A stretch of 64,000 nucleotides of DNA from Candidatus Obscuribacteraceae bacterium (lineage in GTDB: Bacteria; Cyanobacteriota; Vampirovibrionia; Obscuribacterales; Obscuribacteraceae). This document shows, piece by piece, positions 21,632-34,462 of this stretch (positions within the stretch are counted from its first letter, which is position 1; each line of letters starts with the position of its first letter). The notes beneath the pieces are model-generated. The model searched no databases. It was not told the DNA's origin and was given only the letters and a program-made list of their open reading frames with translations. The translations under genes were made by a program, and so were the position numbers. The stretch lies in the NCBI GenBank assembly GCA_044226015.1, contig JBGAHS010000002.1, positions 32,001 to 96,000 of the forward strand, read 5' to 3'.

Positions 21632-22345
21632 TTAGTTAGCCATGGGCTTTGATTGCTGAGCGATTTTTCTGTTCTCAGCGACCTTTTTCACATTGCTCAG
21701 ACGAGTCGCTAGTTTCTTCCCGGCGATGTTCTCAATAAAAGAACGTGGAGCTGGAACACCTATATCAATAAAAGAACCCAATTCGAGAATGGTATTTCCA
21801 TCTACATCAGGTTGGAGAATCCAGCTGCCTTCGACAGCTTTGAAACGATCTGACTTCAACAAGTGATAGTCAATTCTCTTATTAGTTTCTTCTGTACTTT
21901 TCAAAACACAAACGGAAGTACCAAGAACCGGAATCAATTGGAATTTTTGTTCCAGGGTTTGCTCAGTTTTACCGTGCTCATTTTTTCCTTCTTCCAGAAT
22001 CTTGCTATAAGCAAGGTCTGGATCAGACTTACGTTCTTCATGGACAGCTTCCCAAACATCGTGTGGCTGAGCATTGATCTTGATCTTCGCAGTTACCCAA
22101 CGGCGTCCGTTTGGCTTGGGAGCCGTACCGATTACTACCTGACCTTTTGATAGCTTTGCATGCTCTGCTTCGGTAACAACCACCAGCGGTGGCTCAGCCT
22201 TTGTCTCTGTTGTTGGACAGTGAGTTACGTGCTGGGTTTGCACTACATCAGCCGAGTTATTCGCAAGTGCTGGACTCGAACATAAAGACGCGAACGCCAT
22301 CATTACTGCGCCTTTTTTCACATGTTCAACAGTTGATTTCTTCAC
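21632..22345 (-). CDS. START/SRPBCC (polyketide cyclase/lipid-binding) family protein with signal peptide
   Basis: AKIKINAQPHDVWEAV, LLKSDRFKAVEGSWILQP, C-terminal helix; GTG at 22345 after TGAGGT. Confidence 0.8.
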   Translation of the reverse strand: MKKSTVEHVKKGAVMMAFASLCSSPALANNSADVVQTQHVTHCPTTETKAEPPLVVVTEAEHAKLSKGQVVIGTAPKPNGRRWVTAKIKINAQPHDVWEAVHEERKSDPDLAYSKILEEGKNEHGKTEQTLEQKFQLIPVLGTSVCVLKSTEETNKRIDYHLLKSDRFKAVEGSWILQPDVDGNTILELGSFIDIGVPAPRSFIENIAGKKLATRLSNVKKVAENRKIAQQSKPMAN

Positions 22346-22494
22346 AACACTTACCTCATACCGACTAAAGAATGTACTTGAACGCAGTAACAAACAGCTT
22401 GTTGTTAGTTGTTTGTTCCGTCTTGCTGACAAAAAGGAGAGCGCATCATGCTATACCAGATTGTCGACGAACTTAATTTATGAAGGTTCCTCAT

Positions 22495-23142
22495 TTATAC
22501 TCCGATTGGAATAAACTTGGGAACCAGTCGGCGCCACTTCATCTCTTCGCCATATTGTTTGTATTCAGAGCCCAAACTTTCGAGGAGAAGTTTTTCCTCG
22601 TATTTGGCTCTGTTAAGCCAGAGAGGTGCCACCAAAAATAGAGTCAAGCAAACTGCAAGGGGTGAAAGTGAGGCGAGCGATGCCCCAAGTACACTTTGAA
22701 TAATGCCTGAGTAAGCCGGGTGCATGACGAACTTCAACAATCCATCTTTACGCACCTTATGACCATCGAGTACTTCCGCGTCAGTGGTGAAGCACTCTCC
22801 TAAAGAATACCAGCCACCGATCATAAAAACCAATCCGCTAAAGAACTGAATTACACCCCACCAGCCGATCGGCTGAGCGGCTTCAGGAGCCACAAATGGT
22901 ATCGGACACAGAATCATCGCAAGTGTTCCGCCAATCAAACCAAATTGCGCTAAGAAGCCGAGAATCAGAACGATGACTGTTAGCAGAGTTGAGTATTGCG
23001 GTGCACGTTGAATCAGAAAATTCACTTCGTAAAAGACACCGGTTCCACGTCTCTGAAAACCTTTATATAGAACTGGCGCTGAAAGAAGAGCTCCGATACC
23101 AGCCAGAATTGCCGTGCATATGGTCGGCGGTGAAAGTTGCAT
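22495..23142 (-). CDS. Isoprenylcysteine carboxyl methyltransferase (ICMT/Ste14)-like membrane methyltransferase
   Basis: Multiple TM helices; GHKVRKDGLLKFVMHPAYSG, RAKYEEKLL...EYKQY, RLVP. Confidence 0.85.
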   Translation of the reverse strand: MQLSPPTICTAILAGIGALLSAPVLYKGFQRRGTGVFYEVNFLIQRAPQYSTLLTVIVLILGFLAQFGLIGGTLAMILCPIPFVAPEAAQPIGWWGVIQFFSGLVFMIGGWYSLGECFTTDAEVLDGHKVRKDGLLKFVMHPAYSGIIQSVLGASLASLSPLAVCLTLFLVAPLWLNRAKYEEKLLLESLGSEYKQYGEEMKWRRLVPKFIPIGV

Positions 23143-23159
23143 ACGAACCAGGATCCTCC

Positions 23160-23924
23160 CTAGAGATCAAAAAGCGTGTCGTTTAAATCGATATTGAGCT
23201 GGACATCTTTCCAATTTGTATGAGCAAACAGCTTTCCGTCCTTATAATCAAACCACTCGCGTGGTAACAATGTCTGTGGGTCTATGTAAGCGCGCTTCAT
23301 GAGTTCGTCTTTGGACGCACTCGTATAGAGTTCGATTATGTAAACGGGCTTCGGATGACCTTCTACTGTAACAGTCGATTCTGTCACCAAACTTTTCTTG
23401 CCTGCCTTAACAAAGTTAAGCATGACTTGGGACATTCCGTAGAAATCAGAATCAACAAGCGGGTATCCGTTACCTGACCGAACCCATTCAGAATCAGGGT
23501 CAACAGTTGCTACAAATTTCGACATCAAACCGCCGAGATGCCCTTTGACCTTTCCGTTCTTTAACAGAACTGCACACGAACCTTTCTTAAAAGGTCCCAA
23601 CTCCTCTGCGCGAATCTGACGAGGACGCTTGTAATAAAACTTACTGTTCTCTTCGATCGACTTTCCACCTTTGTAGACCGTCATGTGAGATTGAAATGTA
23701 TAGGACTTCAGCTGATCGGCAGCGTCTGCCATTTCTTTGAGAAAATCGGCGCCATCACGCATGCGCTCTTGAGTTTGTCCAGCTGCGGCTGAAACTGAAG
23801 TTGCTTTGTCTGGAACGCGGGTCGGCAGCTGGGTGCTTTCTGCAAGACCTGGATTGAGCAAACTCAACGCGAAAGTGGCAAGACTGATTTGCAGTAATCT
23901 GGAGAACCTGGTTCTAAAGTGCAT
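23160..23924 (-). CDS. Exported LolA-like (lipoprotein-sorting / DUF1571-like) protein
   Basis: Signal peptide; YYKRPRQIR, AYIDPQTLLP, VQLNIDLNDTLFDL C-terminal signature. Confidence 0.7.
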   Translation of the reverse strand: MHFRTRFSRLLQISLATFALSLLNPGLAESTQLPTRVPDKATSVSAAAGQTQERMRDGADFLKEMADAADQLKSYTFQSHMTVYKGGKSIEENSKFYYKRPRQIRAEELGPFKKGSCAVLLKNGKVKGHLGGLMSKFVATVDPDSEWVRSGNGYPLVDSDFYGMSQVMLNFVKAGKKSLVTESTVTVEGHPKPVYIIELYTSASKDELMKRAYIDPQTLLPREWFDYKDGKLFAHTNWKDVQLNIDLNDTLFDL

Positions 23925-24134
23925 CTGTATTGACTCTTGGTTTGGAGCTCAGTGTGAATAACCGGTTATATCTGGATATTAGGACCAAAAAAGGAAGTTC
24001 AGTTAACGAGACTTTCCCCTTTGCTAGCTTCCGCATGATTATGCCATGACTGCAAAAGCACGTTCCTTAGAGGTACTTGATGTTGCCAAGATCCGCCAGC
24101 GATGGCGCGGATTGAGCGCTGCGATAAAACTTAA

Positions 24135-24830
24135 CTAATTGGATCGTGCTCCCACGATCGATTCTTTCGGACACTCCCAGAGTGCAAGCGTCGCATCAAG
24201 AACCTCTTGGGCAGCCTCAGGAATTTGCTCACCGTGGGTCTCATTCAAATCGTCCAGCATACGCTTCATCCAGATGGCGTGGCGCATATGCGTTCTTGCA
24301 TGCAAGCGAACCCACTCTAACCCCTGGCTGATAAGCGCCGGCTCATATTCAGCTGCATGTTTTTCAAAATATTTTTCGCAACTCGGCAAAGCGGCGCGAC
24401 AATACATCGTCGCGGCCAGTTCGGCGGCAACTATGGAATGAATGCCCTCTGCAAAAGTCTTCCGGGTGCACATTTCAGTCATCACATCGCAAAGGTTCTT
24501 AGTCACAGGGCCCACCGGCGCTGCTTCGACCTCTTCTAAAGTGACGCCAGCAAGAGGAAATTGGTGCAAGAAAAGACCCTGATATTTACTTTCGTCATCG
24601 CTGAGACGATTCAGAAGCTGAGAAGCTGCGCTCATTTCAGGTGGCAAGGCATCCCTTACAGTACGAATGTTCTGTGGCAGCTCTTTCATAAAAGGCCAGA
24701 GGACGAAGATTATTTTTCGTCCACGTTCTCTGAATTTGCCATCAGCCAGGTCGATAAACCAGGGACTGACCGAGCAGCCCCAGCTTAGTCTTTCTATCAA
24801 AACTGGCATCCAACCTGGCAGAGACCCCAT
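24135..24830 (-). CDS. Heme-oxygenase-like diiron oxidase (HDO; UndA/CADD/PqqC-like)
   Basis: All-helical 231 aa; WPFMKE, LSDDESKY, AAELAA, EWVRLHARTHMRH match the HDO ligand-bearing helices. Confidence 0.65.
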   Translation of the reverse strand: MGSLPGWMPVLIERLSWGCSVSPWFIDLADGKFRERGRKIIFVLWPFMKELPQNIRTVRDALPPEMSAASQLLNRLSDDESKYQGLFLHQFPLAGVTLEEVEAAPVGPVTKNLCDVMTEMCTRKTFAEGIHSIVAAELAATMYCRAALPSCEKYFEKHAAEYEPALISQGLEWVRLHARTHMRHAIWMKRMLDDLNETHGEQIPEAAQEVLDATLALWECPKESIVGARSN

Positions 24831-25046
24831 CTAACCCTTTTCTTCCTCGCAACACACACTAAATGCGAAACTCTACTTTACCGCAGAGCAGTTAAGTCAT
24901 GGCATGGACGAAGCGCATTGCTTAACCCTTTTCAATGTTTTAAAGAAAGAAAGTTTCGCGAAAGGTTCCTTCGCTTGACCTCTTTTTACAAATTCGGAAC
25001 CCTGCTTCATCTCGTAGCCTTTGCTCTTTATGCTTTTCGCCACCCT

Positions 25047-25055
25047 TGATAGAAT
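25047..25055 (+). promoter_or_regulatory. Extended -10 promoter (TGnTAGAAT), probably a leaderless start of the GH3 operon
   Basis: TGATAGAAT lies 7 nt upstream of ATG 25063; no Shine-Dalgarno. Confidence 0.5.
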
Positions 25056-25062
25056 TCTAAAG

Positions 25063-25956
25063 ATGACAGTAAGCAGGCAAAACAAAACTGAACCATTCGT
25101 ATCTAACACTTTGACCAGGGTCGAGTCCGCAGATGGAACAGAAAATTTGATACGCGTTTGGGAAGCCACGGCTCCAGACGCCTTCGTTCTGTACTTACAC
25201 GGCATTGAAGGTCATAGTTTGTGGTTCGATGAGAGTGCGAGTTTTTTAGCTAAGCACGGAATAAGCACCTTCGCGCTTGATCGCCGCGGCTCAGGATGCA
25301 GCAAGGAAGCACGCGGTGATGCAAAAGATCCTCAGCAACTTCTGAATGATGTGCGGGCGGCGCTTAGATTCGCACGAGAAAAGTCCGCAAGAAAGCCACT
25401 CTTCCTGATGGCAAATTGCTGGGGCGCAAAACTTGCCGCAATTTTAGCGGAGAGGCAAAATCCAGAATCGCAGATGCTAGCAGGGCTGGTACTCAGTTCG
25501 CCAGCTATCGAAGTGAAGGTCGACCTTTCTTTCCAGGAAAAGCTGCAGGTAGCCTGGCGACTCTTGCTCGGCAATCGCGATCCGCTTCCACTGCCGCTAA
25601 AGGTTGAAGATTTCACGAACAACCCTGTTTATTTGAAATACATCGCAGAAGACACAAAGCGCCTGACCACAGCAACTGCTCGATTTTTGTTTTGCACTAT
25701 GCTCTTGACGAAAATGAGTCAACGCAGCGCAGAGAAAATAACGCTGCCGACACTTGTGTTGCAATCAGGAATTGACACCATAGTTGATGAGCCTGGCATC
25801 AAGAAATGGTTTGAGCGATTGGCTGCAAGCGATAAAAAATTTGTCTTATATCCTGAGGTGCACCACAGCCTCGACTTTGATGCGAATCCGCATGCCTACA
25901 GAGAAACACTGCTTGATTGGCTGCAAGAGCATTTGAAGGAGCATAAGCAGCCGTGA
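25063..25956 (+). CDS. Alpha/beta hydrolase (lysophospholipase/Hydrolase_4-like) with Cys at the nucleophile elbow
   Basis: LHGIEGH, DRRGSG, ANCWG in place of GxSxG, GIDTIVD, HHSL. Confidence 0.85.
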   Translation: MTVSRQNKTEPFVSNTLTRVESADGTENLIRVWEATAPDAFVLYLHGIEGHSLWFDESASFLAKHGISTFALDRRGSGCSKEARGDAKDPQQLLNDVRAALRFAREKSARKPLFLMANCWGAKLAAILAERQNPESQMLAGLVLSSPAIEVKVDLSFQEKLQVAWRLLLGNRDPLPLPLKVEDFTNNPVYLKYIAEDTKRLTTATARFLFCTMLLTKMSQRSAEKITLPTLVLQSGIDTIVDEPGIKKWFERLAASDKKFVLYPEVHHSLDFDANPHAYRETLLDWLQEHLKEHKQP

Positions 25957-27164
25957 GAATTCGTTCAATTGAAACCTTCAAGATAACTCTTCCTTTTCGC
26001 TTCGCGTTTGGACACTCGCTTGCCACGCGCGCCGAGTCCCGAAATCTGATCGTGAAAGTAACACTTGCCAATGGAATTTGCGGCTATGGCGAGAGCGTAC
26101 CGAGAGACTATGTCACAGGTGAAACGGTTGAACAGGCAGAAGATAACGTGCTGCTGAACTATGCACCAGCACTGCAGAAAACGTCATTTGATGACCCCAA
26201 AAAGCTTCTGAGCACCCTGAGCGAAACTTTCTTTTCGATGGGGCTTGATGACAAAATGCAAGGGGCATCATGGTGCGCACTCGAGCTAGCATTCTTAGAC
26301 GCTTGCAGCAGATTGCACGAGATGCAGCTTCATCAGCTCATTGGCACCCACAAGCAAGATAAGATTCGCTATGGCGGAACAGTTCCGTTTGGAAAGAAGA
26401 AAGCGCTTCAAGCAATTCTGAACTTCTATAAGATTTATGGCTTTGAAACTGTCAAACTAAAAGTCGGAGCAGCCAAGCTTGAAGATGACGTGGAGAAAGT
26501 GAAGTTGGCTCGCAGCATTCTAGGTGCAAATCGGAAGATTCGCGTAGATGCAAACTGTGCCTGGACACTGGATGAAGCGCTCAGAGCAGCTGAAGCATTC
26601 AGACCATACGGCATTCTTTCCTATGAACAACCCCTGCCAGCAAATAAATGGGACGAACTCAAAAAGCTTAGCGAGCAAATTGAAGAAGATGTTTTACTCG
26701 ATGAGTCTTTATGCACATTGAGGCAAGCAAGCGAACTAGCTAGCAACAGAATTTGCGATGCGTTCAACGTGCGCGTATCGAAGGCAGGAGGCATCTTTGC
26801 TTCGCAGAAAATGATTGATATTGCGTTGAATGCAAATCTGAAAGTTCACCTCGGGGCACAGGTTGGCGAAAGCGGAATTCTCAGCGCAGCTGCAAGACAC
26901 TTAGCTTTGACAAACGAGAAAATGGAAAATTATGAAGGGTCAGCAAACTTTTTTCTGCTGAAGAAAGACATCTGCAAAGAGAATCTAAATGCTGGACTCG
27001 GCGGTTTCGGTGACCTTCGTTTTGCAGCTAAGACTGGCGGTACCGGAATAAACATAATTGACAAAAATCTGAATTCGATGACTGATTCTTGTGATGAGAG
27101 TCAGGCAGATGCGATAACCCCCCGGGTCCAAAATCAAGGATCCTTGAGCCCAAAAGCGAGGTAA
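25953..27164 (+). CDS. Enolase-superfamily enzyme, muconate cycloisomerase/dipeptide epimerase subgroup
   Basis: GYGESVP, KLKVG, RVDAN, EQP, DES, NVRVSKAGG, GAQVGE; GTGA overlap with upstream gene. Confidence 0.9.
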   Translation: MRIRSIETFKITLPFRFAFGHSLATRAESRNLIVKVTLANGICGYGESVPRDYVTGETVEQAEDNVLLNYAPALQKTSFDDPKKLLSTLSETFFSMGLDDKMQGASWCALELAFLDACSRLHEMQLHQLIGTHKQDKIRYGGTVPFGKKKALQAILNFYKIYGFETVKLKVGAAKLEDDVEKVKLARSILGANRKIRVDANCAWTLDEALRAAEAFRPYGILSYEQPLPANKWDELKKLSEQIEEDVLLDESLCTLRQASELASNRICDAFNVRVSKAGGIFASQKMIDIALNANLKVHLGAQVGESGILSAAARHLALTNEKMENYEGSANFFLLKKDICKENLNAGLGGFGDLRFAAKTGGTGINIIDKNLNSMTDSCDESQADAITPRVQNQGSLSPKAR

Positions 27165-27166
27165 TT

Positions 27167-28858
27167 GTGGCGTTCAATCCTTACATTTTCATAGGGCAGT
27201 GTTATCGCGAGTTGACCCATATCAAAAAGTTCAAACAAGCGCTTTCTCGTCCGAGACAGGCTCAAGAAGAGAAACTGTTGAGCATTATTCGCCAGAACGA
27301 AAACACAGACTTTGGCAGGAAGCATCGTTTCTCTGAGATACGCAACATTCAGGACTTCCAGAGACTGGTGCCTCCAAACACTTACGAGACCCTTGAGCCA
27401 TACATAGAAAAGTCCATGGCGGGAGAGAGAAATCAGCTTACGACGGAGAAGCCGCTTATGTTTGCCACTACCAGTGGCACCACAGGCAAGCCCAAATACA
27501 TTCCCATAACTCCAACACACCTGAAGGACTACACCCACGCGTTTCACATTCACAACTGGGGAATGATTAAAGACAACCCTGAAGCGGTGCACCACCCAGG
27601 CGGACGTTACCTCATCTTCAATTCAAATGACGAAGAAGGTTTCACTAAAGATGGTACTCCATTTGGTGCCGTCTCTGGCTTGCTTCGCCGCAAACAATCT
27701 CCTCTTGTTCAGCGCTACATCGCACTGCCTTCACTGGTTAGCAGAATCAAAGACGTCGAATCAAAGTACTACACGATTTTAAGACTTTCACTGGTTCAAG
27801 ACATTATCGCTATTACGAGTTGCAACCCGTCAACACTTCTTCTGCTGGCAGATCAGTTGCAAGAACACGCGGCAAGCTTGATAAAAGATATCAATGACGG
27901 AACCCTGGCAAAATTCGTGAAACCGGGCGCAGATGTTGCCCAGGAATTGAGTACTTACTTGAAAGCTGACCCGGCGTGCGCAAAGCGGCTGTCTTCAATT
28001 CTAGAGAAAAAAGGCGAATTACTTCCAAGCGAAGCATGGCCAAACTTAAGAATAATAAGCGTCTGGAAGGGTGGTCCGATGCCTTTCTATCTCAAGAAGC
28101 TTCCAGAAAAATTTGGCAACATTCCATTTAGAGACTTTGGCTATATGGCCAGTGAAGGCAGAGGCACCATTCCACTGAAAGACGACGGAGCAGGTGGCGT
28201 GGCAGCTTTAACTTCTCACTTCTTTGAATTTGTGCCGGAAGAAGACGAAGGAAAAGAAGAAAGACGTTTTCTCACCTTAGACCAGCTCGAATTGGGCAAA
28301 CGCTATTTCATTCATTTCACAACCGCAGCGGGACTTTACAGATACAACATCAATGACTTGATGGAGGTCGTAGGCTTTGAGGAAAAGACTCCAATCCTTC
28401 AATTTGTTCAAAAAGGAATGGGCATTAGTTCCATCACTGGCGAAAAATTGACTGAAGAACAAGTCTCTGTCGCCTTGCAGTATGCAATCAGACAGCACAG
28501 CCTGGACCAGATTGATCATTTCATACTGGCAGTCGAGTTGGCTGACGTTCCGTATTACAAAGGATACGTTGAGAACTCTGGAGAGCTGCCTGAGTCTGTG
28601 CTCAGCGCCATGGCTCGAACAATCGACCTTTCTCTACAATTACAGAATATAGAGTACAAGGACAAACGCGAGTCCATGCGCCTTGCTCCTATTCAGTTAG
28701 TCGAGGTTCCGCGCGGAACTTTCAAACGACTCAGACAGCAGCGAGTTCATGATGGCGCACCAGAAGCTCAAGTAAAGATACCGTTTCTTACAAACAACAG
28801 CAGATTCAGCCAAGATATTGCTAAACTGACGAACGCAGAACTTGCACTACAGGTCTAG
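27167..28858 (+). CDS. GH3 family acyl-adenylate-forming amido synthetase
   Basis: TTSGTTGKPKYIP P-loop, YMASEG, FFEFVP, GLYRYNINDL, TGEK, QVKIP. Confidence 0.92.
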   Translation: MAFNPYIFIGQCYRELTHIKKFKQALSRPRQAQEEKLLSIIRQNENTDFGRKHRFSEIRNIQDFQRLVPPNTYETLEPYIEKSMAGERNQLTTEKPLMFATTSGTTGKPKYIPITPTHLKDYTHAFHIHNWGMIKDNPEAVHHPGGRYLIFNSNDEEGFTKDGTPFGAVSGLLRRKQSPLVQRYIALPSLVSRIKDVESKYYTILRLSLVQDIIAITSCNPSTLLLLADQLQEHAASLIKDINDGTLAKFVKPGADVAQELSTYLKADPACAKRLSSILEKKGELLPSEAWPNLRIISVWKGGPMPFYLKKLPEKFGNIPFRDFGYMASEGRGTIPLKDDGAGGVAALTSHFFEFVPEEDEGKEERRFLTLDQLELGKRYFIHFTTAAGLYRYNINDLMEVVGFEEKTPILQFVQKGMGISSITGEKLTEEQVSVALQYAIRQHSLDQIDHFILAVELADVPYYKGYVENSGELPESVLSAMARTIDLSLQLQNIEYKDKRESMRLAPIQLVEVPRGTFKRLRQQRVHDGAPEAQVKIPFLTNNSRFSQDIAKLTNAELALQV

Positions 28859-28865
28859 GAAAGAA

Positions 28866-29909
28866 ATGCAAACACAAAAGGTTCTTGTAACCGGCGCAAG
28901 CGGGATGGTTGGCTATCACACGGTGAAAGGGCTGCTCAGCCAGGGGCATGAAGTCACAGCTCTGATTAGACCCTCGAGCAACGATAGTGAGCTAAAAAAT
29001 CTCAAAGGAAACCTGTGGATTAAGAGAGCGGAGCTCAATGATGAAAACGCGTTGCGTCTCGCGCTGAAAGACAGCGACATCGTAATTCATGCCGCAGGCA
29101 TGGTAGACCCACATGCGAAGCGCGAGCAAATCTTCGAAGTAAATGTTGAGTGCACAAAGACCCTTCTTTCTCTGGCTGACGCCGCCAATGTCAAGCATTT
29201 CATTCATATTAGCAGCCTCTCAGTAATCACGGGACAGGGCGATTTGCACGGCGCAAGCGAGGACATGCCGCTGGTATATTGCGGCGAATCTTACGCAGAC
29301 TCCAAAGTTGATGCAGAAAAAGCAGTAACCATGTTTTTCGGTCGTGGCAGTATGATGGTCAGCATTCTGCGACCGGGTTTCATTTATGGCCCCATGGAAA
29401 AAGCATGGATGCCGCGCCTCATCGAAAACTTGCGCACAAGAAAAGCGATGCTTATTGATGGCGGAATTAAGCAAACCAACGTTATTTACGTCGACAATCT
29501 ATTCTCCGCAATAAGCCTGTCAATGCTAAACCCCAAAGCGGATAAGCAAGTTTTCAATCTCACAGATGGTGAGATTGTGACAAAGAAGGAGCTTTTCGAT
29601 GCCATTTGTGATGGCATGGGTTTCAAAAGAATCAACAAAGAAGTTCCGGGTTGGCTCGCTAAGGCTGCCTGTGAGGTGGTTTCATGCATCGCCCCTTATC
29701 TTCCAGAAGATTCGAGAAAAGGACTTTCACGTTTTTCAAGAGCCGCATTCAGGCTGGCTGGCGTCAATCAAGGCTTCGACATCAGCAAAGCAGAACGCGT
29801 TCTCGGCTATACCCAACGAATTCCATTTGGTGAAGGTATGCGCGTGACAGTTGAGTACTTTAAGAAGAACACAGCCGCGAGCAATCGCGATAAAGCAGCT
29901 GTAAAATAA
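28866..29909 (+). CDS. Extended SDR, 3-beta-hydroxysteroid dehydrogenase/OleD-like NAD(P)-dependent reductase
   Basis: TGASGMVG, HAAG, ISSLSV, YADSK, LRPGFIYGP; ATG 28866 after AGGA. Confidence 0.88.
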   Translation: MQTQKVLVTGASGMVGYHTVKGLLSQGHEVTALIRPSSNDSELKNLKGNLWIKRAELNDENALRLALKDSDIVIHAAGMVDPHAKREQIFEVNVECTKTLLSLADAANVKHFIHISSLSVITGQGDLHGASEDMPLVYCGESYADSKVDAEKAVTMFFGRGSMMVSILRPGFIYGPMEKAWMPRLIENLRTRKAMLIDGGIKQTNVIYVDNLFSAISLSMLNPKADKQVFNLTDGEIVTKKELFDAICDGMGFKRINKEVPGWLAKAACEVVSCIAPYLPEDSRKGLSRFSRAAFRLAGVNQGFDISKAERVLGYTQRIPFGEGMRVTVEYFKKNTAASNRDKAAVK

Positions 29910-29940
29910 GCAGACCAAGAACTCACGCGGAGTTAAAAAG

Positions 29941-30243
29941 ATGTCGGTTCTTCAACCTGTCGCAGACTTTGTGGTCGATTACATCGGTCGCCACAAGCAT
30001 CCGGTTAACGCGTTCTTACACATCTTCGGCGTGCCCATGGTTTTCTATGGTGTCTACAAGCTCTTTTGTGGGGAAAGTGAGCTTGCAATGGCTTGGACTC
30101 TAATAGTGTTTGGCTATGTGCTTCAATATCTGGGTCACAAGGCACAAGGCAACGAAGTGGGCGAGGTCACCCTCATCAAGAAAATTTGGAAAAAACTGGC
30201 GAAGAAAAATTCCGGCATAGAAGAGAGCGGCGCAAATGAGTGA
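29941..30243 (+). CDS. Mpo1/DUF962-like small membrane protein
   Basis: YIGRHKHPVNAFLHIFGVP and LQYLGH motifs with two TM helices; GGAG RBS. Confidence 0.75.
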   Translation: MSVLQPVADFVVDYIGRHKHPVNAFLHIFGVPMVFYGVYKLFCGESELAMAWTLIVFGYVLQYLGHKAQGNEVGEVTLIKKIWKKLAKKNSGIEESGANE

Positions 30244-31159
30244 ACAAAATCAGATCATCGCAGTGGACGGAGCTAGTGGATATGTCGGCAGCCACCTTAT
30301 CCACGCTTTATGCAAAAGTGGTGTCCGTGTTAGAGCAATCGTCCATCCTAAAGCTAACCTTTCGGACTGCCAGTTTCTCTCGGAATGCGGCGCCGAGATT
30401 TACAAAACCGACATTGATGCCAATTCGCCAACTCTGATAGACGCACTGACGGGAGCAAGCACCGTCATACATTTAATTGGAAGCATCGCTCCGAAAAAAG
30501 GGCAGAAACTTGAAGAGCTTCATGCAGGCATAACGCAGCAACTCGTAAAAGCAGCACAAAGCACTAACACTAAGATTTTGATGATTACGGCACTGGGCAC
30601 ATCAGCTGACGCCCTCAGCCAATATCACAAGACAAAATGGCAAGCAGAAGAGCTTGTTCGCAAGAGCGGATTGCCCTACACAATTCTTCGACCATCACTG
30701 ATTTTAGGCAGACAGGTTGGAAGACGTGACAGCAAGTTGATGGCACGATATATCGAGCTGATCAAAACAAGACCTAAAGTACCTCTTCTTGGGGGAGGCA
30801 AAAATCTACTGCAGCCGGTTTTCATCGGTGACTTAAGCCGCGCAATTTCAAAGCTTGCATTGAGTCAGGAAATGACTGGAAAGACTCTAGAAATTGGCGG
30901 TGCCGAAGTTCTTTCAATGCAAGAACTGGTGAGCAAGCTGATGGATGCTATCGGCAAACGCAAGCCACTGCAGCCGGTGCCTCCTGCTTTAGCGAATATC
31001 TTAGCCAGCGTGTTGGAGCTGGTGCAATCAGTTCCGATGGTAAGCAAAGACCAGGTGAAACTATCAACGACTGACAATATTTGCAGTGACAACGCACTGG
31101 AAAATCAACTTGCCTTAACACCAACGCCATTGGCTAAGGCACTGGCTACTTACAGATAG
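30236..31159 (+). CDS. Atypical SDR, NDUFA9-like NAD(P)H-binding protein
   Basis: DGASGYVG, SQYHKTKWQAE, LRPSLI, LQPVFIGD; 8-nt overlap with upstream gene. Confidence 0.85.
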   Translation: MSEQNQIIAVDGASGYVGSHLIHALCKSGVRVRAIVHPKANLSDCQFLSECGAEIYKTDIDANSPTLIDALTGASTVIHLIGSIAPKKGQKLEELHAGITQQLVKAAQSTNTKILMITALGTSADALSQYHKTKWQAEELVRKSGLPYTILRPSLILGRQVGRRDSKLMARYIELIKTRPKVPLLGGGKNLLQPVFIGDLSRAISKLALSQEMTGKTLEIGGAEVLSMQELVSKLMDAIGKRKPLQPVPPALANILASVLELVQSVPMVSKDQVKLSTTDNICSDNALENQLALTPTPLAKALATYR

Positions 31160-31160
31160 A

Positions 31161-32174
31161 TTGGAGTCAATTGTGCCAGCAGTACTAGTAACAGGGGCAA
31201 GCGGATTTCTGGGAGCACGACTGTGCGAACGACTTCACGAAATGGGTGTAGAAGTCAAAACATTCGGGCGCCAGGCTGCGCAAACCGAGCGATTAAATCG
31301 TCTGGCAATACCGCATGTTCAGGGCGATATCTGCGATCTTGACTCATTCAAAAAAGCACTGGTTGACGTAGGCGCTGTTTTCCACCTTGCAGGACTGGTT
31401 TCTTATCGCCGATGCGACTATGACTTGCTCTATAAAATAAATGTTTTAGGGACACGCAATGTAATGAAAGCCTGCCTTGAAGCAAATGTTCAAAGAGTGA
31501 TCAACATGGGCTCAATTGCTGGTATGGGAATTCCTGAGCCAGGCAAGCTTGGAACCGAAGAAATTGAATATAACTTGAAGGGTCACGGGCTGCACTATTG
31601 CGATACCAAATTCGAAGCAGAGCAAGAAGCATTAAGGGTTGCAAAACAAGGACTGAATGTCCTGTCACTTAACCCTGGTATCACATTTGGTGAAGGAGAC
31701 ACGCACCCTCACCACCATACTATTTTCAGATCAATGCTGAGCGGGTGGTTCATAGGCTATCCCGCCGGTGGAGTTATGTTTTCTGACATTGAAGATGTAG
31801 TTTCTACCTGCATCGCTAGCCTCAGCAGAGGACAGGCCGGGCAGAGATATGTGATCGGAACTGCAAACCTTAGCTTTAAAGAGGCTGGCGATATGTTAGC
31901 GACAGTTCTGAATGGACGCAAACCAATTTTTCAAATACCAGGTTGGCTGGCTGAGTCAGCAGGTGTAGTTTGCGAAACTGTCTTTCCTTTGTTTAAAATG
32001 AAACCAGCACTGTCATGGCAGGTTGCCTGGCTCAGTCAGAGAAAAATCTTCTATAGCTCTGACAAAGCTATTGCTGAACTGGGCTTGAACCAAACGCCAT
32101 TCATCGAAACGTTACGAAGAACTGCGCCATACTACCTGGGACAAAATTCCCAAGTACTTAGCACAGCACATTGA
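31161..32174 (+). CDS. Extended SDR, dihydroflavonol reductase/HpnA-like
   Basis: TGASGFLG, FHLAG, NVLGT, YCDTK, LNPG, SSDKAIAELG. Confidence 0.88.
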   Translation: MESIVPAVLVTGASGFLGARLCERLHEMGVEVKTFGRQAAQTERLNRLAIPHVQGDICDLDSFKKALVDVGAVFHLAGLVSYRRCDYDLLYKINVLGTRNVMKACLEANVQRVINMGSIAGMGIPEPGKLGTEEIEYNLKGHGLHYCDTKFEAEQEALRVAKQGLNVLSLNPGITFGEGDTHPHHHTIFRSMLSGWFIGYPAGGVMFSDIEDVVSTCIASLSRGQAGQRYVIGTANLSFKEAGDMLATVLNGRKPIFQIPGWLAESAGVVCETVFPLFKMKPALSWQVAWLSQRKIFYSSDKAIAELGLNQTPFIETLRRTAPYYLGQNSQVLSTAH

Positions 32175-32201
32175 ACAGGAAGGCAAACAACAGGAACTAA
32201 C

Positions 32202-33107
32202 ATGCATAAATTGCTACAACATTTATTTCTTGTTGCCAGCTTACTCATCATCGCTGCAACTCCAGGTCTGGCACAAAACAAGGCCACGGAATTGTCGGTG
32301 GGACCAAACGCCAAACTAAAAACCCGTTTTAGCGTGCCGTTAAATTTGCCAACCCTGTTCAACTACAAAACACGGGCCGAAATTCTAGCGATGCGGAAAA
32401 GGGAAATCGACAAGATTCCAGGACTTTTGAAATCACCTTATGAGCCTTACACACCAATATGGAGTGCAATTGAAGACGGCAAACCCTGGTGGGGATTAGC
32501 CGGTGCTGGCATCTTCGACTCTGGAAAAAGGAGCATGACCGGCCCAGCGGAAGAATCACGCTTCGTCATGAATCCCTATCTATTGGTTGCGGCAAACCCA
32601 GGAGCTGGTGGTATTTGGAACCCCGCAGCATTTACGCCCAAGGAAATGAATGACCCGGCTTTTCCATTTTTCTGGCTGCCAGAATCATTGGAAATTGATC
32701 CGACGCGCCCACTTGGAGTAGTGAAATACGACATTACAAAATGGCACCAGGACTGCATCGCAACCGGAAAACTCCGAGGAAGAGTTTCCATAAAGCGCTT
32801 CAGCCTCGTTGCTTATAACGCCAGAGATTTTGGCTACAACTATATTTACTTCAACCCTGAAAAATCCATCAACGTAATCAATGACATACCTACTCACGAT
32901 GCGGCTTTCATAAAACAGTTCATTCACTGCGGTGGCACATGTGGATGCCCAACGTCATGTTGCAACAACATGAGTCCATTCATGGATGAAATCGATCGAC
33001 TCAGAATTACACGCCTGCCAGCAAGAGCTGTTGTCTATTTATGGAAAGAGAGTCCAGCTGATGTGCAAAAATCGCCCGACATGGTTTTCCTGATCGAGTT
33101 CCACTAA
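32202..33107 (+). CDS. Exported hypothetical protein with C-terminal cysteine cluster
   Basis: Sec signal; HCGGTCGCPTSCCNNMSP; AGGA RBS, 27 nt after the SDR stop. Confidence 0.75.
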   Translation: MHKLLQHLFLVASLLIIAATPGLAQNKATELSVGPNAKLKTRFSVPLNLPTLFNYKTRAEILAMRKREIDKIPGLLKSPYEPYTPIWSAIEDGKPWWGLAGAGIFDSGKRSMTGPAEESRFVMNPYLLVAANPGAGGIWNPAAFTPKEMNDPAFPFFWLPESLEIDPTRPLGVVKYDITKWHQDCIATGKLRGRVSIKRFSLVAYNARDFGYNYIYFNPEKSINVINDIPTHDAAFIKQFIHCGGTCGCPTSCCNNMSPFMDEIDRLRITRLPARAVVYLWKESPADVQKSPDMVFLIEFH

Positions 33108-33262: not shown

Positions 33263-34462
33263 ATGTTTTGCAAAGGCAAGCTGAAAAGTCATCAATATAT
33301 TAGAAGAGCTGAAGCAAGCTCTTTTCTTAGCGCCTTCTTGGCGATAGCGCTTGTATTGCAGGTGGTTTCGCTGCCAATGGCGTTAGCTGCCGACAAAGCG
33401 GGTAGTTCGCCCCTGGATACAGCCAGCGCTTCAGTCGACGGTACTGAGCCTGACAAGTCGATGCTGGGCGAAATACCAGCAACAGATTCCCCAAAAGCAA
33501 AAGACGGCATGGTCGAGCAATCCGGCGACAGCAGTCCTGACTCCCCAAATTCTGCAACAAGCTCATCAGGCGACTCTGAATCATCTGCAAAAGCAGATGC
33601 GAGAAAGAAAAAGAAGAAAGTAGAGTTCGCAGACGTTCTTCCGACTCTCACCTGGATTGACCCAGATGTCGAACCTAAGGCTATCCTTCTCTGCGTACAC
33701 GGGCTAGGGCTGCATAACGATGCCTATGATGCATTCGGCAAAACTATGGCCAAACATGGCTACCTGGTCTATGCGGTGGATGTGCCGGGCTTCGGCAGCT
33801 TCAAAGCTGCAGAGGGTCGCGAGAGAATCGATTTCGACTACTGCCTCCGTGGAATTGAGCACACCTTACATTTCGTTCACAAAGTAAACCCTAAGATGCC
33901 CGTCTTCATTCTTGGCGAATCGATGGGTGGCGCTATTGCATTACGGGTGACTTCACAGCATCCAGAGTTGGTTGCAGGACTGGTAAGCTCCGTTCCATCA
34001 GGAGACAGATTTAATCAAGGCAAAGAAACTTTCAGAGTCGGGCTAAAACTGCTCACAGCTCCGAACAAGGAGTTTGACATTGGATCGAGCGTAATCAGCA
34101 GAGCCACGAGCAAAGACGACCTCAAAGAGCGCTGGGAAAAAGATCCCTTAAATAGGATGGCGCTTACACCGAAGGAACTCGTAAGGTTTCAAGATTTCAT
34201 GAATGAGAATCATGAAAGTGCTAAAAGCATTACCAATACACCAGTTTTGTTTGTTCAAGGCTGCAAGGATACTCTTGTCCGCCCGGAAGGCACAATGGAG
34301 CTCTACAACCAAATTTCCAGTCCAGATAGAGAGCTGGAATTAATTCATGATGGCGAGCACCTAATTTTCGAAGAGAATCAGTTTAATGATGAGGTGATCA
34401 AGAAACTAGATAAATGGCTAACTAGCCATCTCACCACAAGCAAACAACTAGGCAGCAAATAA
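33263..34462 (+). CDS. Exported alpha/beta hydrolase (lysophospholipase/monoglyceride lipase-like)
   Basis: Signal peptide and Ser-rich linker; VHGLG, DVPGFG, GESMGG, QGCKD, GEHL. Confidence 0.88.
   Translation: MFCKGKLKSHQYIRRAEASSFLSAFLAIALVLQVVSLPMALAADKAGSSPLDTASASVDGTEPDKSMLGEIPATDSPKAKDGMVEQSGDSSPDSPNSATSSSGDSESSAKADARKKKKKVEFADVLPTLTWIDPDVEPKAILLCVHGLGLHNDAYDAFGKTMAKHGYLVYAVDVPGFGSFKAAEGRERIDFDYCLRGIEHTLHFVHKVNPKMPVFILGESMGGAIALRVTSQHPELVAGLVSSVPSGDRFNQGKETFRVGLKLLTAPNKEFDIGSSVISRATSKDDLKERWEKDPLNRMALTPKELVRFQDFMNENHESAKSITNTPVLFVQGCKDTLVRPEGTMELYNQISSPDRELELIHDGEHLIFEENQFNDEVIKKLDKWLTSHLTTSKQLGSK

Follow-up and report, generated by a model that had tools for sequence, protein, structure and literature searches.

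What does a bacterial cell make with a gene set that joins a GH3-family ligase to an enolase-superfamily enzyme, an alpha/beta hydrolase, three short-chain dehydrogenases/reductases (SDRs) and a small Mpo1-like protein? Such a set lies on contig JBGAHS010000002.1 of a Candidatus Obscuribacteraceae bacterium (assembly GCA_044226015.1), within positions 32,001-96,000 of the forward strand; these 64,000 nucleotides (nt) are the window, the whole stretch that was analysed, and the genome is about 92% complete, which is the scope of every genome-wide absence given below. The operon is a real, co-conserved pathway that is apparently undescribed. We regard it as an even question whether its end product is a tailored envelope lipid of the N-acyl amino type; that the product is a lipid is highly probable, and that conjugation forms an amide to an amino acid is favoured by a little. 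The seven genes of the operon are as follows.

25063..25956, + strand: monoacylglycerol-lipase-like alpha/beta hydrolase, core (Hydrolase_4, 152 bits)
25953..27164, + strand: MLE-subgroup enolase-superfamily enzyme, core and the most constant gene (MR_MLE_C, 135 bits)
27167..28858, + strand: putative acyl-adenylating ligase of the GH3 family (GH3 N, M and C parts at 235, 75 and 63 bits vs 23.6)
28842..29909, + strand: extended SDR 1 (GxxGxxG, YADSK), core in the order; likely start ATG 28866
29941..30243, + strand: small Mpo1-like (DUF962) protein with conserved His motifs (PF06127, 38 bits)
30236..31159, + strand: atypical SDR 2 (NDUFA9-like; YHKTK)
31161..32174, + strand: extended SDR 3 (HpnA-like, 210 vs 368 bits; YCDTK), accessory

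The seven open reading frames (ORFs) fill 25063-32174 with junctions of -4, +2, -17, +31, -8 and +1 nt, the GH3-SDR1 junction becoming +7 nt if SDR1 starts at ATG 28866. The tight coupling described in the initial annotation is thus borne out, with junctions of -17 to +31 nt and Pfam families that agree: Hydrolase_4, MR_MLE, GH3 (N, M, C), three Epimerase-type SDRs and Mpo1-like are all over cut-off. None of the proteins of the locus reached the cut-off of a named NCBIfam function in the Pfam/NCBIfam scan. The GC content of the DNA of the locus (0.46-0.49) is ordinary for the window. A regulatory scan gave 2 promoter-like sites vs 13.6 in shuffled sequence and 17 terminator-like sites vs 15.0.

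Conservation within the order was followed in 20 family loci fetched around GH3 orthologues, and hence chosen by GH3, with the flanking housekeeping gene ppx as control. The order hydrolase-enolase-GH3-SDR1-Mpo1-SDR2-SDR3 is kept in all 20, as far as contigs extend; GH3, SDR1, Mpo1, SDR2 and SDR3 are present in 20/20 and the enolase and hydrolase in 19 (one contig end), and ppx is adjacent in 13. This conservation of operon order is more than chance. A GH3 orthologue of 51-76% identity occurs in 23 of 24 other family genomes, most of which also hold a paralogue at about 40%. A search of the order based on the enolase revealed four genomes in which hydrolase, enolase and SDR1 have no GH3 between them: G022, of the same family and 98% complete, and G025, G026 and G027 of a sister family. 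Downstream of SDR1 these have Mpo1 and SDR2 (G025, G027), Mpo1 and then the contig end (G026), or SDR2-SDR3 with Mpo1 not called (G022), and SDR3 is absent from L227 and L229, the sister-family loci that reach that far. The GH3 paralogue is retained in three of the four genomes. Within the order the Mpo1-like gene is more constant than GH3, and the constant part of the operon is the enolase with the hydrolase, not GH3; the view of GH3 as the centre of the pathway therefore gives way to one in which the enolase is the invariant element. In eight loci of other genera (L032, L033, L036-L040 and L230:15531-17872) two paralogous membrane proteins of about 385 amino acids, with His motifs and no Pfam family, stand behind SDR3; they have four homologues elsewhere in the genome studied here and are candidate membrane oxidases for the pathway.

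Beyond the order, the genes recur together in several phyla and are not scattered, which upholds the earlier proposal of a lipid pathway, conserved as a set, in which an acyl chain is released, modified, conjugated and exported. Among 150 genomes drawn from the phylum and searched with the enolase, 10 matched; GH3 is adjacent in nine of these, a heme-oxygenase-like diiron oxidase (HDO, PF14518) lies directly upstream in eight, and an ICMT-family gene follows GH3 in three. In one match GH3 is joined in a single protein to a fatty-acid hydroxylase that scores best on the model of OlsE, the ornithine-lipid hydroxylase (213 vs 475 bits). Scanning species genomes with the enolase alignment gave at least 583 relatives, the best 80 of which span Planctomycetota, Deltaproteobacteria, Chloroflexota, Myxococcota, Omnitrophota, Auribacterota, Calothrix and Pseudoalteromonas. 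Partners in these best 80 loci are HDO with GH3 (9), hydrolase with GH3 (9), hydrolase only (9), an LpxL-like acyltransferase (15) or GH3 only (4), and no locus among them has two of the hydrolase (18), the full-ligand HDO (9) and the LpxL-like enzyme (15). We searched the genomes of 50 of the 58 loci that lack a neighbouring GH3, leaving out the remaining 8: this GH3 clade is present elsewhere in 34, 4 gave weak matches only and 12 gave none, and all 12 are LpxL-type. The hydrolase was found in 17/20 mostly planctomycete genomes, in 0/8 LpxL-type genomes and in 0/5 HDO-type genomes. In the 15 LpxL-type loci (L080-L117) the LpxL-like gene lies directly upstream of the enolase, with FadL converging in seven, and all 12 genomes of this type that were searched gave no GH3.

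Lipid genes are neighbours in every phylum looked at. The fullest copy outside the order is Auribacterota L098, which reads ketosynthase (KS)-KS-methyltransferase-GH3-DUF1571-enolase-hydrolase-SDR1-SDR2, and Omnitrophota L081 combines Mpo1, an SDR1 orthologue, the enolase and GH3. Pseudoalteromonas clusters a reducing polyketide synthase (PKS), two thioesterases, GH3, hydrolase and enolase; in Pseudoalteromonas sp. MSK9-3 (L099/L196) the PKS has a single module, the thioesterases are of hot-dog and type II kinds and the hydrolase has a signal peptide, and 90% relatives occur in the cultured bacteria P. citrea and P. aurantia. Twelve GH3 regions were opened, of which four end a FabG-acyl carrier protein (ACP)-FabZ-KS-KS-hydrolase cluster and two follow an iterative PKS, a phosphopantetheinyl transferase and FabG. 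The four in Planctomycetota (L187, L188, L194, L195) have the form FabG/FabZ-long ACP (132 aa)-KS-KS-membrane hydrolase-GH3(-DUF1571), the fatty acid synthase genes having been profile-scanned in L187 and read from sequences and ACP matches in the other clusters. The long ACP is present in 16/18 genomes with such planctomycete clusters and was not found in 6 genomes of the Obscuribacterales family. Further neighbours in other phyla are patatin, a PlsC-type acyltransferase and FadL, and the hydrolase is fused to a ketopantoate-reductase domain in two loci. In two planctomycetes (L190, L191) GH3 genes occur as tandem pairs, and an MMPL transporter adjoins one of these pairs. In a related member of the class (L065:791-1942) an enolase-GH3 pair has two genes converging on it, one Rid-family/chorismatase-like and one ICMT-like, which would fit an elimination that forms an enamine.

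In order to address what the most constant enzyme might do, we counted residues over 231 enolase sequences (150 representatives, 80 loci and the window protein; overlaps kept). The Lys-x-Lys motif and the Asp/Glu/Asp metal ligands that are the hallmark of the MLE subgroup are present: Lys168/Lys170, Asp199/Glu225/Asp250 and Glu328 are kept in 230-231 of the 231. The position of the second catalytic lysine, as aligned with the nearest solved sequences, 2p88 and dipeptide epimerases (E 1.5e-71 and 1e-66), is Arg274 in 215 of 231; the change from Lys to Arg shows against 2p88 and 3jva. The eighth strand reads Glu-Gly-Ser/Ala and not Asp-x-Asp, the hallmark of dipeptide epimerases. The family has motifs of its own, namely His21, Pro-Arg-x-Tyr-Val-Thr-Gly-Glu and Gly-x-Gln-Val-Gly-Glu; His21 (222/227) and Arg51 (227/228) are residues invariant to it. 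No NCBIfam family, MenC models included, was over cut-off for the enolase, and searches of plasmids with it gave ordinary epimerases and MenC only. It is fused to the hydrolase in 3 of the 150 representatives, and HDO-enolase fusions exist too. According to the available text of PMC12006748, racemisation in this subgroup requires both lysines, and dehydration by o-succinylbenzoate synthase (OSBS) only the first, the second stabilising the intermediate. The arginine at the second position therefore makes a one-base elimination, shift or cyclisation likelier than racemisation, and the enzyme, which belongs to an uncharacterised MLE subfamily, probably acts as a one-base dehydratase or isomerase and not as a racemase. 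As for the type of reaction, elimination would be the first choice, at slightly short of an even chance; epimerisation is doubtful, and cyclisation a shade more so.

The hydrolase has Cys119 at its nucleophile elbow, with Asp238 and His268, and its nearest solved proteins are monoglyceride lipases (E 4e-14). The elbow residue is Cys in 20/20 family hydrolases; among 14 distant ones it is Cys in 2 and Ser in 12. The predicted role of the hydrolase is the release or the transfer of an acyl chain. GH3 has the three nucleotide-binding motifs at residues 102, 326 and 389 (compared as listed in the part of PMC12493201 available to us). It matches plant JAR1 at E 8e-36 and scores 116 bits on the OlsH equivalog model against a cut-off of 620, and is predicted to form amides by acyl adenylation. 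Its best plasmid match (31% identity) lies in a PKS-P450-aminotransferase-dehydrogenase-GH3-F420 enzyme-FAH-ThrRS cluster, and clusters at 90% with Streptomyces parvulus CAE45676.1, which we take to be borrelidin BorL. In a tree rooted on two distant sequences only, from which 19 near-redundant loci and fragments under 420 aa were left out, the BorL-like protein is sister to the enolase-linked GH3 clade (support 0.84/0.92), on a long branch. All three SDRs retain GxxGxxG and YxxxK. SDR1 matches OleD-type best in NCBIfam (126 vs 580 bits) and has orthologues in the Auribacterota and Omnitrophota loci (33.5%); SDR2 has a 35.8% orthologue, with order preserved, in Auribacterota L098, and the Mpo1-like protein a 44% orthologue in Omnitrophota L081. 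By its Pfam description, yeast Mpo1 acts in the shortening of 2-hydroxy fatty acids. Behind the biotin operon of the same genome (C1:926337-926687) lies another short protein in which Mpo1-like His motifs were read by eye.

A second GH3 (C11:479154-480956), 36% identical to that of the window, lies outside it in the region C11:464318-480956, where it adjoins a 2939-aa iterative PfaA-like PKS, a 1497-aa partner and a HpnI/ceramide-glucosyltransferase-like gene. A PKS is adjacent in 7/7 GH3-paralogue loci fetched (L063, L064, L067-L071, in addition to the region in this genome), often with a proline-dehydrogenase-like gene converging. Possibly this locus is the other half of the same lipid pathway. 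The statement that there is no PKS core thus holds locally and does not extend to the genome, whose second GH3 sits beside an iterative PKS, or to relatives that carry a synthase inside the cluster. Elsewhere in the genome (C11:991930-998908) a stand-alone KS gene and fragments resembling a second PfaA-like PKS lie beside plsX-fabH-fabD.

The genes that face or follow the operon are less constant, and their features are as follows.

24135..24830, - strand: protein of heme-oxygenase-like fold (CADD/UndA/TenA-like) that lacks part of the iron-ligand set; accessory and possibly vestigial
23160..23924, - strand: exported DUF1571/LolA-like protein, predicted periplasmic lipid carrier (DUF1571 21 bits; language-model features)
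22495..23142, - strand: ICMT/PEMT-family membrane methyltransferase (PF04140, 40 bits; four hydrophobic segments)
21632..22432, - strand: START/Polyketide_cyc2 lipid-binding fold protein, accessory (PF10604, 31 bits; four paralogues in the genome)
32202..33107, + strand: secreted Cys-cluster protein, outside the conserved set (no Pfam family; two paralogues in the genome)

The two arms start 232 nt apart, and the minus-strand gaps are 210 nt (HDO-fold to LolA-like), 17 nt and 62 nt. In the 20 family loci the ICMT gene is present in 18, the LolA-like and START genes in 16 each, the HDO-fold gene in 13 and the Cys-cluster gene in 2. The assignments of the opposite-strand genes as ICMT-like, START and LolA-like stand: ICMT/PEMT-like and Polyketide_cyc2 are over the Pfam cut-off, and the DUF1571 protein, which falls below its own (21 vs 27 bits), is LolA-like by language-model features (0.93-0.96). 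As a lead, it is predicted to be a periplasmic lipid carrier, and its gene lies directly behind GH3 in Auribacterota L098 and planctomycete L187 and L188; ICMT-family genes stand behind GH3 in distant HDO-type loci as well. The minus-strand protein had been called a diiron HDO, of which the fold survives and the full metal site does not. Its model (pLDDT 89.8) has as best Foldseek matches a TenA homologue, UndA and CADD (TM 0.60-0.74), and its sequence matches CADD at E 1e-8, but two positions of the CADD-type Glu/His/Glu/His/Asp/His set, presumably CADD His88 and Asp178, are not kept in any of 14 orthologues: the first His is absent, the Asp position holds His (8), Asn (5) or Gln (1), and the last His is Gln in 2 of the 14. 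The distant HDO partner of other phyla retains all six ligands, and a profile comparison of the two (probability 2.8%) does not support orthology. The HDO-fold gene is separated by the 210-nt gap. Five intact loci have lost it, and a search of the corresponding genomes, which had no positive control, did not find it either (0/5); the protein is degenerate, dispensable here and accessory, possibly vestigial. Nor does the exported Cys-cluster protein belong to the pathway: it lies 27 nt behind SDR3 here, is found behind the operon in only 2/20 loci (3 are cut by contig ends), and has paralogues elsewhere in the genome (35% and 31%). Further downstream (33263-34462) a second Hydrolase_4 protein, of Ser type and with a signal peptide, has a thioredoxin-like neighbour and follows the operon only within the genus (5/20 loci).

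These observations can be brought together in a pathway in which the Cys hydrolase would free or pass on a long-chain acid, and GH3 would use ATP to re-activate the acid and couple it to an acceptor of amino-acid type. In this organism the iterative PKS next to the second GH3 may supply the acyl donor. The enolase-family enzyme would carry out a one-base elimination (dehydration) or a double-bond shift beside a free carboxylate; oxidase partners (OlsE-like or full-ligand HDO) would supply the hydroxyl for elimination, and the resulting enamine, 2-oxo or 2-hydroxy acid could be handled by SDRs, the ketopantoate-reductase fusion, the Rid-like neighbour and Mpo1, each seen in few loci. Adjusting the oxidation state of the product, and its trimming, capping and export, would fall to the SDRs, the Mpo1-like protein, the methyltransferase and the LolA-like carrier. 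If the hydrolase and GH3 together perform one acyl transfer in two steps, it would be understandable that the enolase has one acyltransferase of acyl-ACP type as its neighbour exactly where both are missing; judging from its family, one LpxL-type enzyme could do the equivalent transfer from acyl-ACP. LpxL enzymes make acyloxyacyl esters, so the LpxL-like protein may instead replace an OlsI-like second acylation. Either way we infer that the enolase works in an acylation pathway, and since it persists without hydrolase and GH3 it likelier acts on a head group or a finished conjugate than on a free fatty acid. More broadly, we tentatively propose, and hold to be rather less than evenly likely, that the operon is among the most complete forms of an undescribed bacterial envelope-lipid class. 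The mark of this class would be a new reaction of the enolase superfamily with a lipid as substrate (it might form an N-acyl dehydroamino acid, say, or close a ring from a hydroxylated head group), with interchangeable acyl supply (PKS, a special fatty acid synthesis of type II (FASII) or lipase) and transfer (hydrolase and GH3, or LpxL-like), and the loci in question distributed across at least Cyanobacteriota, Planctomycetota, Desulfobacterota, Chloroflexota, Myxococcota, Omnitrophota, Auribacterota and Pseudomonadota.

Several observations weigh against the pathway as drawn. GH3 is missing from the operon in four genomes of the order, and G025, which is 94% complete, has no GH3 match anywhere, so that the paralogue may take over conjugation, or the pathway may do without this step. 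SDR2 has a strong match in only 1 of 43 distant genomes, and 34 of the best 80 enolase loci have no linked partner. The LpxL-type genomes are all Deltaproteobacteria/Desulfobacterota or unclassified, are incomplete metagenome-assembled genomes and perhaps reflect one inheritance; because the partner groups are kin and partly incomplete, their mutual exclusion is a pattern and not a statistic. In the enolase, Lys277, three residues past Arg274, is kept in 228/231 and could act as a second base; the nearest solved sequence, 2p88, is presumably an N-succinyl-Arg/Lys racemase; and the invariant Arg51 with the frequent Arg26 of the capping domain could hold a second acid group, as would suit a diacid no less than an acylated amino acid.

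Some of these points lead to other explanations. In the borrelidin cluster the enolase BorE, the lysophospholipase-like BorF and the GH3 protein BorL serve the cyclopentane-dicarboxylate starter, and by this parallel the enolase could cyclise or isomerise a small dicarboxylic acid that GH3 loads on an ACP or PKS, with the hydrolase editing or releasing, so that the operon would tailor a starter unit or polyketide and give an unusual, for example ring-ended, fatty acid. The PKS cluster around the best plasmid GH3 match and its sister position in the tree, the ACP-KS-KS or PKS genes that adjoin GH3 in several phyla and the conserved capping-domain arginines all agree with this. However, the BorL-like protein is on a long branch of a tree with a distant root, GH3 stands last in the synthase clusters, where thioesterases or hydrolases precede it and a periplasmic carrier comes next, the dedicated long ACP is missing from the six family genomes, and the enolase persists without GH3 in 12 genomes; we consider a starter-unit role unlikely. 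It is slightly more unlikely that the operon remodels or salvages lipids, the hydrolase freeing fatty acids of the membrane or of prey, the enolase, SDRs and Mpo1 processing 2-/3-hydroxy acids by dehydration and alpha-oxidation, and GH3 or the LpxL-like enzyme re-attaching the chain with no new head group. A monoglyceride-lipase-like hydrolase, FadL beside 7/15 LpxL-type loci, patatin neighbours, the constancy of Mpo1 relative to GH3 and the two hydrolase-ketopantoate-reductase fusions would suit salvage, whereas the dedicated synthases linked in Planctomycetota, Auribacterota and Pseudoalteromonas point to biosynthesis, the window operon has no beta-oxidation genes or uptake systems, and characterised GH3 enzymes make amides.

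The enolase might instead be an N-acyl amino-acid racemase or epimerase that turns the GH3 product to its D form with Lys170 and Lys277 (or Arg274) as bases, everything else being as in the N-acyl amino lipid pathway. The closeness of 2p88 and the dipeptide epimerases speaks for it, although score closeness partly reflects general similarity; the K-x-x-R of racemases seems swapped to R-x-x-K, and the near-invariant Lys277 keeps this explanation alive. The arginine at the second acid/base position in 215/231 and Glu-Gly-Ser in place of the dipeptide-epimerase Asp-x-Asp argue against it, and we find it improbable. Least credible, and very improbable, are the two models of the initial annotation, an OleBCD-like hydrocarbon route (reduction by an SDR, GH3 as beta-lactone synthetase, hydrolase as decarboxylase) and a diffusible jasmonoyl-amino-acid-like signal. 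SDR1 does match OleD best, GH3 is clearly JAR1-like, and KS pairs beside relatives could condense two chains. Still, the OleD match stays far under its cut-off, GH3 is not OleC, no OleA is in the cluster (a genome-wide OleA search was not made), and the enolase, the most constant gene, is left without a role; OleB has an Asp nucleophile, unlike the Cys or Ser of the hydrolases. For the signal, presence in nearly every family genome and lipid-carrier neighbours suit a structural envelope lipid better, and no receptor or regulator is conserved beside the operon (a response regulator occurs in only 3/20 loci).

An N-acyl amino lipid pathway of this kind would matter in several ways. The locus defines a second, widespread bacterial GH3 clade tied to an enolase subfamily without assigned function (at least 583 relatives). 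The enolase superfamily is a standard proving ground for the prediction of function; were one of its members to act on lipids with Arg in the place of the second base, that would be a new reaction type. We found no coverage of Obscuribacterales lipids in the open-access literature; these bacteria are near kin of the cyanobacteria and non-photosynthetic, and a lipid shared across the family would therefore serve as a biomarker. The pathway can be tested directly in cultured carriers (Calothrix PCC 7716, Pseudoalteromonas citrea/aurantia and planctomycetes).

Comparison with known systems sets aside several candidates whose partner genes are missing from the genome. A menaquinone look-alike (MenH/MenC/MenE) was rejected, with no MenD, no MenB over cut-off and MenC models under cut-off, and the genome has two futalosine-family genes over cut-off. 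Hopanoid or sterol tailoring (HpnA, SdmB) was rejected as no squalene-hopene cyclase matched in the genome, and the bacterial ceramide pathway as no serine palmitoyltransferase was over cut-off there; that family has three members, one in the bio operon (unscanned), one Kbl and one divergent (142 vs 500 bits). A divergent BioF-family enzyme at C3:387001-388119 stays under all cut-offs. With the MLE subgroup (OSBS/MenC, muconate cycloisomerase, N-succinylamino-acid racemase, dipeptide epimerases and cis-3-hydroxyproline dehydratase) the window enolase shares Lys-x-Lys, three acidic metal ligands, the eighth-strand Glu and the capping domain, but it has Arg for the second lysine, no Asp-x-Asp and its own invariant motifs, and remains under NCBIfam cut-offs. 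Plant GH3 enzymes (JAR1, GH3.5, GH3.12) share the fold and the three nucleotide-binding motifs (E 8e-36), whereas the window GH3 is bacterial and operon-encoded, its pocket is matched to no plant substrate and a hormone-like role is unsupported. The borrelidin genes borE, borF and borL resemble the operon in combining enolase, lipase-like hydrolase and GH3 with SDRs, and the BorL-like GH3 is the nearest named relative (31%); the window operon differs in having no modular PKS, and the BorL-like protein is a long branch outside the clade. Four stretches of Streptomyces records searched for BorE/BorF contained only PKS and unrelated genes, and the 'borL' of PMC13386636 was rejected as the GH3 gene, being a linker in the available text. 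The GH3-bearing planctomycete clusters resemble, unaligned, the atypical FASII clusters found in Kuenenia, Rhodopirellula and Desulfotalea (PMC2649909), discussed for ladderanes, in their paired FabF paralogues with extra ACP and FabZ; the part of that paper available mentions no GH3, enolase or hydrolase, and the Obscuribacterales are without the long ACP.

The open-access literature, which leaves out most subscription papers, gave no description of this gene set, in agreement with the view that no characterised pathway has it; that view had overlooked the GH3 route of OlsH, OlsI and OlsG, which is the nearest model. OlsH, the only characterised bacterial GH3 in the literature found, makes N-acyl-ornithine from free fatty acid and ATP, and its authors expect other bacterial GH3s to use different substrates (PMC12493201, available in part). 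As far as the accessible text goes, OlsH gave no product in E. coli, which the authors blame on a lack of free acid (PMC12493201), and its operon in Singulisphaera acidiphila also holds an alpha/beta-hydrolase O-acyltransferase and a phospholipid-type methyltransferase (PMC12493201; review PMC12971839). A lipase or thioesterase beside each GH3 would answer this need for free acid. In the window, too, GH3, alpha/beta hydrolase and methyltransferase share one locus, the host has no enzyme of OlsB/OlsF type (PF13444 was not found in the genome), and one relative has its GH3 fused to an OlsE-like hydroxylase. The differences are that GH3 scores 116 vs 620 bits, that the hydrolase (ORF 25021-25956) has no match to the OlsI model at E 0.001 and has Cys, that the window adds the enolase, three SDRs and the Mpo1-like, LolA-like and START proteins, and that GH3 can be lost from the operon. 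Our best reading by analogy is that the operon would work like OlsH, OlsI and OlsG without being a member of that system.

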